This document shows positions 7,929 to 47,230 of a stretch of DNA of 64,000 nucleotides, piece after piece. The notes below the pieces were generated by a model. It did no database searches. It was not told the origin of the DNA and worked only from the letters and a program-made list of their open reading frames with translations. This stretch comes from Escherichia coli (GTDB lineage: Bacteria > Pseudomonadota > Gammaproteobacteria > Enterobacterales > Enterobacteriaceae): assembly GCF_003334785.1 (NCBI RefSeq), contig NZ_QOWV01000011.1. One strand, given 5' to 3'. The translations under genes were made by a program, and so were the position numbers. Every line of letters starts with the position of its first letter. The stretch's first letter is position 1.

Positions 7929-8027
7929 CTGCATTACAGAAATTAATTTCCTTAAATAACAGTAAATTAAAAACTGGCATGATTTGTGAATGTATCGGCG
8001 CATTAACTGTCATTGCTGGAGAATTTG

Positions 8028-11087: not shown

Positions 11088-12221
11088 CTACATCGGCAAT
11101 GTTTTCAACAATCCAAATGCCTCTTTCATCCGATCCTCACTGACCACAAAGGCGCGAAGCTGGTCAGCATCGTCAACGCCGCGCGCCACCATTCCCTGGC
11201 GTTCGGTATTAATTTGCCAGCGTAAATCCTGACGCTGGGTTTCGCCTGCCAGATGCAGCGGTAATTCCGGCGTTTTGATTTTCACCAGCATCGCCGGGAG
11301 TTTCAGCGGCGTGTTATTGCCGAGAAGATTTTTTGCCAGCACCATCGCGCTAAGTTGAATCGGCTGGAGGAACGGCAATACCTGACCGTTAATTTCCGCG
11401 CAATCGCCCAGCGCGTAAATATCGGTATTACTGGTTTGCAGATAACTATCGACGCAAACGCCGCGATTAATCGTCAGCCCGGCGCGTCGTGCCAGGGCGG
11501 TTTCCGGGCGCAGTCCGGTGGCGGCAATTACCGCATCCACTTCGATGCTACGCTGGCGGTCCAGCGTTGCCAGAATGCCAGAATCCGTTTTTTCCAGCCC
11601 CTGCAACTGAGATTTCAACAGCAGATGAACACCCATCTCCGTCAACCGATGCTGCAAGCGGCTGCTTACTTCCGGTGGCATTAACGACGCCAGAATACTG
11701 GCAGCGTTGTCGATTAGCGTGACCGCTTTGCCTGCACGACAAAAATCCATCGCCAGTTCGCTACCAATCAAACCACCGCCAACAATCAACACGCGTCGGG
11801 CATCCCGCAGTTGCGTTTCACAGGCGCGATACTCTTGCTGACTATTTAACGTCAGCATTAACTCACGCCCAGGCACAGGCGGGACAAAGGCGCTGGCACC
11901 GGTTGCCAGCACTAACTTGTCGTATTGCCACTGATTATTCTGGCTTTTCACCACATGGGCTTCGGCATCGATATCCGTCACCCAGGTGTGCGGAAACAGG
12001 CGCAGATTAAACTGCTCGGCAAATTCACCCGCCGTCTGGCGGGTAAGGTCGTCGGCACGTTGCCCCTGACTGATAACATGGCTGAGGTCAGGTTTGTTGT
12101 ACTCATCTATGCTGTCGGCGGCAATCAAGGTTAATGGAATAGTGGCGTCCTGTTTGCGAATATTTTTCACCAGTTGTCGGGCGGCGAAGCCCGAACCAAT
12201 GATCACAATGCCGTTGCTCAT
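11088..12221 (-). CDS. norW: NADH:flavorubredoxin reductase NorW
   Basis: 377 aa FAD/NAD-binding ORF (GSGFAARQ); start overlaps norV stop. Confidence 0.95.
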
Positions 12222-13657
12222 TTTGCCTCCGATGCCAGTTCGTCAAAGACGTCTTTGCCGAGGGAGCATTCCGGGCACAGGAAGTTATCCGGGACTTCAC
12301 TCCACGGCGTTCCTGGTGCAACGTCCTGCATTGGCTCGCCTTTTGCCGGATCGTAAATCCACCGGCAGACGCTGCACTGCATCCGTGGGCCGAGGTCAGC
12401 CGTCGTGGCGGCAGAGGTTTCTTCTTTAACTACCGTATTCACCGTGCTCTGCGGCAGCGGCGCGAGCGCCCACTGACGGGCGATTTCGCGACCGTGTTCA
12501 CGGCATAACTCCAGAGCGTCCTGGTCTGGTCGCCATTTGGCTTTCAGGCTGAGCGACATTTCGAAACCCGCATCCTGCAGGCGCGTGGAAAGACGATCCA
12601 CCGCACCGCCGCTCCAGCCGTGAGAGCCGAAAGCACTGGCGCGTTTGTTACGGAAGCGTAAACCAGTCATCTCCTCCACCAGCCCGGCGATTTTCGGCAT
12701 CATCACGTTATTCATCGTCGAAGTGCCGACCAGCACGCCTTTTGAGCGGAAGACATTGGTCAGGATTTCGTTTTTATCGCTTCGGGCGACGTTGAAAATT
12801 TTCACCGCCACGCGTGGGTCGGTTTCCGCAATCCCCTGGGCGATAGCGTCAGCCATCATGCGGGTGTTATTCGACATGGTGTCGTAGAAAATGGTGATTC
12901 TGTCTTCCTGATAATCAGCCGCCCATTTCAGGTACAGCTCGACAATTTGCGTCGGGTTATCGCGCCAGACCACGCCGTGGGAGGTCGCTATCATATCGAC
13001 TGGTAAGTTAAAGCCCAGGATCTCGGTAATTTTCGGCGTTACCAGGCGGCTGAACGGCGTCAGGATATTGGCGTAGTAACGCTGGCACTGCTCGAAAAGC
13101 TCCGTCTGATCCACTTCATCGTTGAACAGATGCTCGTCACAGTAGTGCTGACCGAAAGCATCGTTACTGAACAGCACCGCGTCGCCTGTCAGGTAAGTCA
13201 TCATGCTGTCCGGCCAGTGCAGCATTGGTGTTTCGACAAAAATGAGCTGTTTGCCGTTGCCGATATCCAGCGTGTCGCCAGTTTTCACCACATTAAAATT
13301 CCACTCCGGATGATGGTGATGACCATTTATCGAGTCGATAGCGTTGGCAGTACAGTAGATCGGCGTATCGGGAATTTGTGCCATCAGTTCGGTCAGCGCC
13401 CCAGCGTGGTCCTCTTCTGCATGGTTAATCACGATGTAATCGATATCCGCCAGATCGATTTCATTACGCAGGTTCTGCACAAATTCGCGGCTGAATTTAT
13501 GGTCGACGGTGTCGATCAGCACGTTTTTTTCTTCGCGGATGAGGTAGCTATTGTAGCTGCTGCCGCGCAGCGTTTTATATTCCGTGCCGTGAAAATCACG
13601 CACTTCCCAGTCACGTTGACCAACCCAATGAATGTTATTTTTCACCACAATAGACAT
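12218..13657 (-). CDS. norV: Anaerobic nitric oxide reductase flavorubredoxin NorV
   Basis: 479 aa; metallo-beta-lactamase/flavodoxin domains and C-terminal rubredoxin CxxC...CPxC. Confidence 0.95.
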
Positions 13658-13700
13658 AGCAACCTCAATTTATTCAGCGTGTTCTAAAAAGATGTCTTGC

Positions 13701-13721
13701 TAATTGCAGATTGCGTGCCAG
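13701..13721 (-). promoter_or_regulatory. Sigma-54 (-24/-12) promoter of norVW
   Basis: Minus strand reads cTGGCACgcaatcTGCAatta, about 45 nt upstream of norV ATG. Confidence 0.8.
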
Positions 13722-13775
13722 TTTTTTATCTGATTGTTTTTACTCTATAAATAAAATTATGCCCATTAATGAGTA

Positions 13776-13831
13776 GTCAAAATGACTATCAATCAAATGG
13801 TCGATATGACAATATCTATAGTCAAATTGAC
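13776..13831. promoter_or_regulatory. Three NorR enhancer sites (GT-N7-AC)
   Basis: gtcaaaatgac (13776-13786), gtcgatatgac (13800-13810), gtcaaattgac (13821-13831) in the norR-norV divergent region. Confidence 0.8.
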
Positions 13832-13843
13832 AGTGAGGCAAAG

Positions 13844-15358
13844 ATGAGTTTTTCCGTTGATGTGCTGGCGAATATCGCCATCGAATTGCAGCGTGGGATT
13901 GGTCACCAGGATCGTTTTCAGCGCCTGATCACCACGCTACGTCAGGTGCTGGAGTGCGATGCGTCTGCGTTGCTACGTTACGATTCGCGGCAGTTTATTC
14001 CGCTTGCCATCGACGGTCTGGCAAAGGATGTACTCGGTAGACGCTTTGCGCTGGAAGGGCATCCACGGCTGGAAGCGATTGCCCGCGCCGGGGATGTGGT
14101 GCGCTTTCCCGCAGACAGCGAATTGCCCGATCCCTATGACGGTTTGATTCCTGGGCAGGAGAGTCTGAAGGTTCACGCCTGCGTTGGTCTGCCATTGTTT
14201 GCCGGGCAAAACCTGATCGGCGCACTGACGCTCGACGGGATGCAGCCCGATCAGTTCGATGTTTTCAGCGACGAAGAGCTACGGCTGATTGCTGCGCTGG
14301 CGGCGGGAGCGTTAAGCAATGCGTTGCTGATTGAACAACTGGAAAGCCAGAATATGCTGCCAGGCGATGCCACGCCGTTTGAAGCGGTGAAACAGACGCA
14401 GATGATTGGCTTGTCCCCTGGCATGACGCAACTGAAAAAAGAGATTGAGATTGTGGCGGCGTCCGATCTCAACGTCCTGATCAGCGGTGAGACTGGAACC
14501 GGTAAGGAGCTGGTGGCGAAAGCGATTCATGAAGCCTCGCCACGGGCGGTGAATCCGCTGGTCTATCTCAACTGTGCTGCACTGCCGGAAAGTGTGGCGG
14601 AAAGTGAGTTGTTCGGGCATGTGAAAGGAGCGTTTACTGGCGCTATCAGTAATCGCAGCGGGAAGTTTGAAATGGCGGATAACGGCACGCTGTTTCTGGA
14701 TGAGATCGGCGAGTTGTCGTTGGCATTGCAGGCCAAGCTGCTGAGGGTGTTGCAGTATGGCGATATTCAGCGCGTTGGCGATGACCGTTGTTTGCGGGTC
14801 GATGTGCGCGTGCTGGCGGCGACTAACCGCGATTTACGCGAAGAGGTGCTGGCAGGGCGATTCCGCGCCGATTTGTTTCATCGCCTGAGCGTGTTTCCAC
14901 TTTCGGTGCCGCCGCTGCGTGAGCGGGGCGATGATGTCATTCTGCTGGCGGGGTATTTCTGCGAGCAGTGTCGTTTGCGGCAGGGGCTCTCCCGCGTGGT
15001 ATTAAGTGCCGGAGCGCGAAATTTACTGCAACACTACAGTTTTCCGGGAAACGTGCGCGAACTGGAACATGCTATTCATCGGGCGGTAGTTCTGGCGAGA
15101 GCCACCCGCAGCGGCGATGAAGTGATTCTTGAGGCGCAACATTTTGCTTTTCCTGAGGTGACGTTGCCGACGCCAGAAGTGGCGGCGGTGCCCGTTGTTA
15201 AGCAAAACCTGCGTGAAGCGACAGAAGCGTTCCAGCGTGAAACTATTCGTCAGGCACTGGCACAAAATCATCACAACTGGGCTGCCTGCGCGCGGATGCT
15301 GGAAACCGACGTCGCCAACCTGCATCGGCTGGCGAAACGTCTGGGATTGAAGGATTAA
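13844..15358 (+). CDS. norR: Sigma-54-dependent NO-responsive activator NorR
   Basis: 504 aa from [21 protein letters not shown] domain, AAA+ GAFTGA motif, C-terminal HTH; ORF-track N-terminal extension covers the NorR sites and is rejected. Confidence 0.93.
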
Positions 15359-31564: not shown

Positions 31565-33103
31565 TTAGTGCGCACCGCCTCCGCCGCCACCTGCGCCAAA
31601 TGGCGGTTTAGCAAACCACACCAGCCCCAGCAGGACGAGGAATATCCCGGCTGACATCCAGAAGATCTCATTGGCGGAAATAATCAGCCCCTGATTGGTG
31701 ATCTGCTGGGCAATCCAGCCTGATGCCTGCTGTTGCGTCATCCCAAGCCCTTCCAGTTGACTGTACATCGCCTGGGCATTCGGGTTGAACGGGTTTACCG
31801 ACTCAGTCAACTGCGCATGGTGCATCGACTCGCGGTTGGTCCACATGGTCGTGGTTATCGACGTGCCGATAGACCCCGCCAGCGTTCGCGTAAAGTTAGA
31901 GAGGCTCGATGCCGCCGCCAGTCGTTCCGGTGGCAAACCAGACAGCGTAATGGTGGTCAGCGGCATAAAGAAGCAGGCCACCGCAAACCCCTGGATAAAC
32001 TGCGGCCAGGCCGACGCGCCAAAATCCATACCTGGTTCAAAGGTATAGGCACGCCAGTAGAAGCAGACGGCATACATAATAAAGCTGAAGGTTACCAGCC
32101 GCCGCATATCCAGTTTATGCGCGAAGCGGCCGATAATCGGCGACAGGATCACCGGAATAATCCCTACCGGCGCAGAGGCCAAACCTGCCCAGGTCGCCGT
32201 GTAACCGTAGACCTCCTGCAACAACTGCGGCAGCAGAACAATAGCGCCGAAGTAGAGCATATACGCGAGGCTGATACACAAGCAGCCGATGGTGAAGTTG
32301 CGCGACTTAAACAACGACAGATCGACTATCGGGTTATCGTCGGTCAGCTCCCAGACAATCAGGAAGCAGATAGCCACCACCGCCACCACGGTAAGGATGA
32401 TAATTTCCTGTGATGAAAACCAGTCCAGCTCTTTACCGCGGTCGAGCATAATCTGCAGGCTGCCGATACCAATAACCAGCAGTGCCAGCCCCACGGCATC
32501 AATCCGCCGCCGTTCGGTGCGGGTTTCACGTCCGCGCAGAGTTTGCAGTGTCATCAACACCACCGCCACGCCAATCGGCACGTTGATGAAGAATATCCAG
32601 CCCCAGTGGTAATTATCGCTGATATAACCGCCGAGGATCGGGCCGCAAATTGGCGCGACAATCACCGTCATCGACCACAACGCCAGCGCGATCGAGCGTT
32701 TGGCTGGCGGGTAGTTATTCAGCAATAGACTTTGCGAAAGCGGGATCAACGGCCCGGCGACAATCCCCTGAATCACGCGGAAGAAGATCAGCATATTCAG
32801 GCTGCTGGAGACACCACACGCCCACGACGCAATAGCAAAGGCGATGGTGGACCAAAGGAACAGTTTCACTTCCCCGACGCGCTTTGCCAGCCAGCCGGTA
32901 AGCGGGATCGAGATGGCATTCGCCACCCCGAAAGAAGTGATTACCCACGTTCCCTGGCTGAGCGATGAGCCCAGATTCCCGGCGATAGTGGGGATCGCCA
33001 CGTTAGCAATGGTGGAGTCCAGCACCTGCATGAATGTCGCCAGTGACAGCGCAATCGTCATAATGACCAGTTGCGCGCCTTCCAGCGGTTTTTGCTGTTG
33101 CAT
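31565..33103 (-). CDS. emrB: Multidrug efflux MFS transporter EmrB
   Basis: 512 aa from MQQQKPLEGAQLVIMTIALSLATFMQVLD; 14-TMS MFS. Confidence 0.95.
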   Translation of the reverse strand: MQQQKPLEGAQLVIMTIALSLATFMQVLDSTIANVAIPTIAGNLGSSLSQGTWVITSFGVANAISIPLTGWLAKRVGEVKLFLWSTIAFAIASWACGVSSSLNMLIFFRVIQGIVAGPLIPLSQSLLLNNYPPAKRSIALALWSMTVIVAPICGPILGGYISDNYHWGWIFFINVPIGVAVVLMTLQTLRGRETRTERRRIDAVGLALLVIGIGSLQIMLDRGKELDWFSSQEIIILTVVAVVAICFLIVWELTDDNPIVDLSLFKSRNFTIGCLCISLAYMLYFGAIVLLPQLLQEVYGYTATWAGLASAPVGIIPVILSPIIGRFAHKLDMRRLVTFSFIMYAVCFYWRAYTFEPGMDFGASAWPQFIQGFAVACFFMPLTTITLSGLPPERLAAASSLSNFTRTLAGSIGTSITTTMWTNRESMHHAQLTESVNPFNPNAQAMYSQLEGLGMTQQQASGWIAQQITNQGLIISANEIFWMSAGIFLVLLGLVWFAKPPFGAGGGGGGAH

Positions 33104-40911: not shown

Positions 40912-41264
40912 GCAATAGAAAGATTCCTTTATTTGTCTATGTCGATATATTACCCAATGGAAATAGTCACTTTTTTCTACCCTAACATACTGAGAATCTG
41001 AGGCAACCCCTGATGGCAAATGTGGCATGAATATTGATGCGAGCAAATCGCCGGAATTTCCCGTGATATAAGGGCTGAGAGCAAATCGAGAAAGTTGATA
41101 TTTTTTGTCAAAGATAGCGAAAAAACGCCTGAATATTGTGGTTTCAGGCGAATAATGCAACAGAGTATCAGTGTAGATCACCACAAATTATTTGCGTGAT
41201 AAAAAGCTATTTGGCGGGAATTATTTCCCTGCTGCGGGTAGTGATATTTTTGAAAATAACACCC

Positions 41265-46562: not shown

Positions 46563-47230
46563 GCTAATGCTCCTTAATAAAAGCGTAATGGGATGTTAAT
46601 GGAGATGAAAGCAGTGGATCTCATTGCCATCTGCATTTTCGCATAGCGTATATCGCTGGCTATGACTAATCAATTAGTGAAAAATTTTTATTTAGTCAGT
46701 TTTTGTAGATAAAATATTCCGTAACGGCTCGTTTTTTGTACATTGTGGATTTTTACATGCCGATATGATTTATTTTTAATTAAATCAATTAGATATGGCC
46801 TTACCTTTAATATCACTAATGAAAGTTTGGGGGTGAGGTAACGCTATAAGCGTAGAGAATTCGGTGTATGTAGTAGCTGGGTCATTTTCAGCATTTTTTA
46901 TGCCAGACAATGTACATTAACAGCAGAAAGCACCAGTGATGGATGTTTTCTTTTATTCTGTTATATTGCATTTTTATTCACTTTGATTTTGTCAGGCTTG
47001 CGGAATTAGCGAGCAGAGAGCGCCGCTCTGTTCACCAATAATCTAAATTACTCATCAAAATGGCTAATATATAATCTTGAAATTATTCTGAGAGTTTCAG
47101 AAAATAACAGCTGAAATAATCTCGCGCAGGACTGTAAATAGATTAAATTTTGTGGAAATATAATAAGTGATCGCTTACACTACGCGACGAAATACTTTTT
47201 TTGTTTTGGCGTTAAAAGGTTTTCTTTATT

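Follow-up and report, generated by a model that had tools for sequence, protein, structure and literature searches.

Organization of the norR-norVW locus

The analysed DNA, a continuous stretch of 64,000 nucleotides from Escherichia coli referred to below as the window, contains the genes norW, norV and norR, flanked in the RefSeq annotation by hypF on one side and by gutQ-srlR-gutM on the other side. The anaerobic NO reductase flavorubredoxin is encoded by norV (12218-13657, minus strand; an ORF of 479 aa), the first gene of the operon, and the NADH:flavorubredoxin reductase by norW, the second gene (11088-12221, minus strand). The gene norR (13844-15358, plus strand) encodes the NO-sensing sigma-54 enhancer-binding protein of 504 aa. 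The ORFs of norW and norV correspond to the RefSeq annotation, for norW that of the identical K-12 DNA, and norR is likewise taken from RefSeq. The three proteins were compared with the NCBIfam equivalog profiles: NorW scores 684.6 bits with NF003437 (cut-off 392), NorV 1045.5 bits with NF003954 (cut-off 711) and NorR 822.2 bits with NF003451 (cut-off 476). With this last cut-off passed, the cognate AAA+ enhancer-binding protein of the sigma-54 promoter described below is the product of the adjacent norR.

The start codons of norV (13655-13657, minus strand) and norR (13844) are separated by a spacer of 186 bp (13658-13843). Each gene is preceded by a Shine-Dalgarno motif GAGG located 5 nt ahead of the ATG, at 13663-13666 on the minus strand for norV, where the block AGCAACCTCA is kept across genera (alignment A1), and at 13835-13838 on the plus strand for norR. 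An Rfam scan of positions 13300-14200 gave no match to an RNA family at E <= 1.

The 701 bp of 13400-14100, used as a query, show 100% identity with E. coli K-12 MG1655 and with numerous further strains; the 5,426 complete E. coli genomes all contain this locus. In RefSeq, the identical sequence of K-12 is annotated in agreement with the original prediction, which had read this spacer as the divergent control region of norR and norVW. We consider it practically certain that 13658-13843 is this known region of E. coli, and no observation speaks against it. The region of E. coli K-12 was reportedly the subject of Hutchings 2002, Gardner 2003 and Tucker 2004. The window carries the same DNA as K-12, with no difference in norVp, in NorR sites 1-3 or in the IHF region, and this control region is already known in full experimental detail, in work published between 2002 and 2010.

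The sigma-54 promoter of norV

The sequence TGGCAC-GCAAT-CTGCA is the reverse complement of 13705-13720 and represents a sigma-54 promoter on the minus strand. With one further base, it forms the 17-mer CTGGCACGCAATCTGCA (13705-13721), which points at norV and lies 48 bp upstream of its ATG. The GG doublet at -25/-24 corresponds to 13719-13718 and the GC doublet at -13/-12 to 13707-13706, the two doublets being 10 bp apart. The pattern TGGCAC-N5-YTGCW, searched on both strands of the 64 kb, has this promoter as its single match (0.11 expected), and when the window is shuffled, 11 of 100 trials contain a strict match of this kind. A position weight matrix (PWM) was derived from a set of 32 further sigma-54 ChIP-seq motifs of E. 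coli, from which those of norV and hydN had been left out. With this matrix, the norV promoter scores 17.1 bits, above the training median of 15.9 bits, and ranks second among 127,968 positions.

The same 17-mer is carried by OS25, a peak obtained in ChIP-seq of sigma-54 and situated upstream of norV (Bonocora 2015, PMC4591121), and the corresponding promoter has the EcoCyc flag of an experimentally confirmed one, as quoted in the same article. The norR/norV spacer is also among the DNA picked up by the RpoN holoenzyme in genomic SELEX (PMC8743547). The unique strict match, the PWM score and the ChIP-seq peak all agree with the predicted sigma-54 promoter aimed at norV. The span of 13701-13721 first given for it does contain the motif and includes flanking bases in addition, and its -12 element, set at about 13704, was misplaced by 2-3 nt relative to the GC at 13706-13707, which is immaterial.

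According to the rule of Bonocora 2015 (PMC4591121), norV transcription is predicted to start 19 nt downstream of the motif centre, leaving 37 nt to the gene. Applied to a motif centre at 13713, this rule predicts a start at 13694 (13693-13695, minus strand) and a leader of approximately 37-38 nt; the exact nucleotide should be regarded as an estimate from the sequence. The minus strand reads A-C-A-U at 13695-13692, around the predicted start. The open-complex assays of Tucker 2010 were initiated with ATP plus CTP (PMC2831303), with which the A-C-A-U appears compatible. The genome-wide supplement of Kim 2012 (PMC3415461), where transcription start sites of norV and norR were sought, holds an orthologue table and no entry for either start.

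Three other sigma-54-like sites were noticed elsewhere in the window. The sequence CTGGCATGATTTGTGAA (7974-7990, plus strand) is exactly the sigma-54 promoter motif of hydN-hypF, listed by Bonocora 2015 (PMC4591121) as ChIP-seq peak OS26, and has the non-canonical -12 element GTGAA. The highest PWM score of the window, 17.45 bits, belongs to CTGGCATAAAAAATGCT (46890-46906, minus strand), localized in the divergent spacer between alaE and stpA and pointing toward alaE, approximately 330 nt before its ATG; this sequence is absent from the main text and tables of Bonocora 2015 (PMC4591121). Finally, GTGGCATGAATATTGAT (41022-41038, plus strand) is the intergenic antisense sigma-54 ChIP-seq site OA04 of the same study (PMC4591121). 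Relative to the U00096.2 coordinates, the distance separating OA04 from the norV promoter is changed by 407 bp, so the strain of the window may carry an insertion or deletion with respect to K-12 U00096.2.

The three NorR enhancer sites

Three inverted repeats GT-N7-AC lie upstream of the promoter: site 1, GTCAAAATGAC (13776-13786), centred at about -87; site 2, GTCGATATGAC (13800-13810), centred at about -111; and site 3, GTCAAATTGAC (13821-13831), centred at about -132. Their centres are separated by 24 bp and then by 21 bp. The loose pattern GT-N7-AC has 213 matches in the 64-kb window, among which four triples are contained within 56 bp; such a triple is present in 172 of 200 shuffles of the window and in 11 of 5000 shuffles of the AT-rich spacer. 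When the half-sites are extended to GTC-N5-GAC, the only triple within 56 bp in the window is that of the norR-norV spacer, and none was obtained in 200 shuffles of the window or in 5000 shuffles of the spacer. By itself the loose pattern is weak evidence, and the triple of the GTC-N5-GAC core is rare by chance. A NorR PWM was derived from 205 sites of orthologues outside Escherichia. In a scan of the 64 kb, sites 1, 2 and 3 occupy the top ranks with 26.7, 21.3 and 23.1 bits, and the next position reaches 11.5 bits; this position is the palindrome GTCATAATGAC at 33057-33067.

These sites are those that have been mutated experimentally. The mutagenic primers of Tucker 2010 (PMC2831303), by which GT-N7-AC was changed to GG-N7-CC in sites 1, 2 and 3, map to 13767-94, 13792-817 and 13814-43, respectively, and each displays exactly two mismatches, the designed ones, on the G-T and A-C. 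The 'NorR123' oligonucleotide of the same study (66 bp), defined from footprints as the minimum DNA with the three sites, is the exact reverse complement of 13771-13836. The three predicted repeats are thus the sites altered by the mutagenic primers, and the footprint-based oligonucleotide covers the same three sites. The loss of any single site abolishes the induction of norV-lacZ, the enhancer-dependent ATPase activity and the formation of open complexes (Tucker 2010, PMC2831303), and on these grounds the enhancer role of the sites is demonstrated. Three NorR dimers have been proposed to assemble on this DNA into a hexamer (Tucker 2010, PMC2831303), and the norR/norV spacer is the only strong target of NorR in genomic SELEX (PMC8249747).

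A fourth GTC-N5-GAC (GTCACGTTGAC, 13610-13620) is localized inside norV, in the codons G-Q-R-D, approximately 84 nt downstream of the predicted transcription start. It was rejected as a fourth NorR site: it is not among the 12 best PWM matches listed, the lowest of which has 4.9 bits, the codons that it occupies are conserved, and only about one third of the species retain the motif. Most likely it arises as a side effect of the coding sequence.

The IHF region between promoter and enhancers

Between the promoter and site 1, the segment 13721-13775 contains 78% A+T, against 49% for the whole window. The consensus of the integration host factor (IHF) is YAANNNNTTGATW on the plus strand and WATCAANNNNTTR when read toward norV. 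Scanning with this consensus, together with the comparative offset reported below, designates a putative IHF box at 13727-13739 on the minus strand, where AAACAATCAGATA departs from WATCAANNNNTTR by two mismatches. In the window this box reads TATCTGATTGTTT, with two of the nine specified positions mismatched; since 186 positions should yield approximately 1.5 matches of this quality by chance, the box is not significant by itself. Among the 75 other species, 70 have a box of this type with its beginning 5-6 nt upstream of the -24 hexamer, and in 64 of the 75 it has at most one mismatch at the same offset. In alignment A1, the residues T95, T96, G97 and T99 of the box are invariant or nearly so. 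An AT-rich tract (13740-13757) lies 5' of the putative core, and the whole AT-rich linker from the box to site 1 (13740-13775) is kept in length and varies freely in sequence.

Tucker 2010 (PMC2831303), with reference to Tucker 2004, states that the interval from the norV start to the enhancers is bound by IHF, and the figure of a review places it likewise. An IHF bend had been predicted at 13730-13775, with AT-richness as its sole ground: the stretch is indeed AT-rich and the literature puts IHF there, while the conserved box starts at 13727, slightly nearer the promoter. The exact core at 13727-13739 is a candidate designated from sequence comparison. Papers on DNA looping, CRISPRa and biosensors were searched for coordinates of IHF at norV and give none.

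The box varies within E. coli, being TATCTGATTGTTT in the window and in K-12, TATCTTGTTGTTT in the locus L002 and TATCTGATTGATT in strain AF3, this last form having one mismatch fewer than that of K-12; in most other genera the box is perfect or has one mismatch. Between NorR sites 1 and 2, positions 13787-13806 hold three overlapping matches to the IHF consensus with a single mismatch (0.16 expected per 186 positions), a cluster that is not conserved outside Escherichia in an alignment of 22 genera. This cluster could be the 'second IHF binding site' that a preprint attributes to PnorV.

The start and the promoter of norR

The mechanically defined ORF of norR extends from 13769 to 15358 (529 aa), which adds 25 codons to the annotated gene (13844-15358) and carries it across the NorR sites. 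The true start of norR is 13844, not 13769, and the upstream extension is an artefact, as had been proposed. The profile NF003451 aligns, at its position 3, from residue 2 of the 504-aa protein; a Shine-Dalgarno motif of the GAGG type is found at -12 to -4 of norR in 77 of 78 species; and the open stretch upstream of the gene differs among species, ranging from 0 to 96 codons. In an older annotation of Klebsiella pneumoniae, the norR gene KPN_03044 measures 1551 nt, versus 1515 nt in E. coli (PMC3415461, supplement), which looks like the same kind of over-extension across the enhancer sites.

The sigma-70 promoter of norR was sought with consensus scans. On the plus strand the standard scan found nothing, on the minus strand it found one match of 9/12, and a lenient scan returned only candidates of 7-8/12, none of them convincing. 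The weak candidates whose -10 hexamer lies at 13808-13834 all fall on NorR sites 2-3. The claim that the complete control region is readable from the sequence can thus be retained for the norV promoter and the NorR sites and has to be given up for the norR promoter, which the consensus does not reveal. Since only 13 bp separate the last NorR site from the norR ATG, the norR promoter must overlap these sites. Regulation of norR as well as norVW by NorR is stated in the literature (including PMC8249747); the geometry of this autoregulation at norR, as suggested by the position of the sites, is presumptive.

Conservation across enterobacteria

A scan with one genome per species gave 80 loci encoding NorR, of which 78 had enough upstream DNA and 75 could be scored for the sites. 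Counted from the norR ATG, the first positions of the three NorR sites are -68, -44 and -23 in 69 of the 75 species. The -24 hexamer, GTGCCA when read toward norR, is positioned at -129 plus or minus 2 from this ATG, and its distance to site 1 is of 55-57 bp in 71 of the 75 species. The 22-genus alignment shows that the invariant positions are the GTC and GAC half-sites, GTGCCA, the TG of the -12 element, the T-run with TTG that lies immediately upstream of the -24 element, both Shine-Dalgarno motifs and both start codons. The 35 bp from the T-run block to site 1 vary freely.

The -12 element of norV (13705-13709 in the window) occurs in two main forms. CTGCA is found in 28 species, belonging to Escherichia, Salmonella, Citrobacter, Kluyvera and their relatives, and TTGAT in 40 species, among which Enterobacter, Klebsiella, Kosakonia and Raoultella. 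In the second form, GA replaces the canonical and near-universal GC at -13/-12. No comparison of the CTGCA and TTGAT promoters or of their IHF boxes was found in the accessible literature.

A deletion in the enhancer region of E. coli AF3

E. coli AF3 (NZ_OZ547117.1; locus L082, 3001-3141) presents a precise deletion of 45 bp, equivalent to 13783-13827 of the window. The deletion fuses site 1 to site 3, so that one hybrid site, GTCAAAATGAC, is left in a spacer of 141 bp. It was seen in one of the 5,426 complete E. coli genomes. Because all three sites are needed according to Tucker 2010, this blood-culture isolate should not induce norVW. An assembly error is another possible explanation of the deletion.

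Discussion

In the mechanism that explains the control region of norR and norVW, the -24/-12 promoter (13705-13721, minus strand) holds sigma-54 RNA polymerase in the closed state, and three NorR dimers, on the inverted repeats GT-N7-AC centred at about -87, -111 and -132, are proposed to form a poised hexamer on the DNA. IHF bends the AT-rich DNA that separates promoter and enhancers, and because of this bend the NorR hexamer can touch the polymerase. Upon binding of NO to the non-haem iron in the GAF domain of NorR, the AAA+ ATPase is released, and ATP hydrolysis by NorR opens the norV promoter. The norVW operon is then transcribed, from a start predicted at about 13694, yielding the flavorubredoxin and its reductase, by which NO is reduced. 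The same three sites, 13-68 bp before the norR ATG, would overlap the promoter or the leader of norR, and for this reason NorR could also control its own gene. In this scheme the DNA binding, the need for all three sites, the binding of IHF and the sensing of NO are taken from the literature. Our own analysis shows that the sequence elements are present, statistically unique, conserved and the same as the sites of the published experiments.

The motifs could in principle be chance matches in an AT-rich intergenic spacer, devoid of any regulatory role, and the frequencies of the simpler patterns seem to invite such a view: GT-N7-AC is common (213 matches and four triples, with a triple in 172 of 200 shuffles) and even the strict sigma-54 motif arises in 11 of 100 shuffled windows. 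The triple of GTC-N5-GAC, however, never appeared in the shuffles of either kind, the positions of the sites are kept in 69 of 75 species although the flanking DNA diverges, and the elements coincide exactly with mutated and footprinted sites and with a ChIP-seq peak. A coincidence is already refuted by the conservation data and the published mutagenesis, and the probability that we leave to it is negligible. The start of norR at 13769, which would place the repeats inside a coding sequence of 529 aa, is to be dismissed with the same firmness. Its appeal comes from an in-frame ATG followed by a frame that runs uninterrupted into norR, and from the longer K. pneumoniae gene of the older annotation. 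The RefSeq start, the alignment of the NorR profile with the 504-aa protein, the Shine-Dalgarno motif before 13844 and the unequal length of the open stretch among species all contradict it, and the upstream conservation tracks the palindromic sites, not codons.

The repeats might also act mainly as operators repressing the divergent norR promoter, the activation of norV being secondary or mediated by other DNA. Their proximity to norR, where any promoter of this gene must overlap them, the weak sigma-70 candidates lying on sites 2-3 and the reports of NorR control over both norR and norVW are in line with such a role. The mutation of a single site nevertheless suffices to abolish norV-lacZ induction, together with the ATPase activity that depends on the enhancer and the open complexes (Tucker 2010, PMC2831303), and the fixed distance of 55-57 bp to the -24 element is a constraint expected of an enhancer and not of a norR operator. 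We therefore hold an exclusively operator function to be very improbable, refuted as it is by Tucker 2010; the autoregulation of NorR is an added function and not an alternative to the three sites being enhancers of norV.

As enhancers of norV, the NorR sites resemble those of other sigma-54 systems. The pairs glnAp2/NtrC, nifH/NifA, pspA/PspF and Pu/XylR also combine a -24/-12 promoter and an IHF bend with activator sites approximately 80-140 bp upstream, bound by an AAA+ activator that hydrolyses ATP. Unlike these systems, NorR needs three consecutive dimer sites, and the DNA acts as a ligand that assembles the hexamer (Tucker 2010, PMC2831303). The NorR hexamer is pre-assembled and regulated while bound, whereas NtrC is controlled via its oligomerisation (Tucker 2010, PMC2831303). 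A further analogy, drawn by Tucker 2010 (PMC2831303), is with the TyrR boxes, where three adjacent dyad sites likewise nucleate a hexamer of the enhancer-binding protein type; the TyrR hexamer represses sigma-70 promoters, in contrast to NorR, which activates a sigma-54 promoter.

The norR-norVW region is among the best-characterised sigma-54 enhancer regions, and PnorV is already in use as an NO sensor part in synthetic biology; its recognition has no discovery value. Its value is that of a positive control: from the sequence alone, the promoter was recovered correctly, as were the three enhancer sites and the spurious lengthening of the norR ORF. The split of the -12 element between lineages, the degenerate IHF box of K-12 and the 45-bp deletion of one isolate are side items that can be called mildly new. 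That the norV promoter exists in two lineage-specific forms in the Enterobacteriaceae which, together with the degenerate IHF box of K-12, make a real regulatory difference is a rather doubtful proposal, suggested by sequence comparison. If true, the variants of the -12 element and of the IHF box could alter the stability of the closed complex, the leakiness or the IHF dependence of the NO response. From the comparison of 75 species, a clean phylogenetic footprint of the region is gained, with fixed sites and a fixed promoter-enhancer distance, and this constancy of the NorR site positions and of their distance to the promoter is in keeping with the model, already published, in which the DNA assembles the hexamer.
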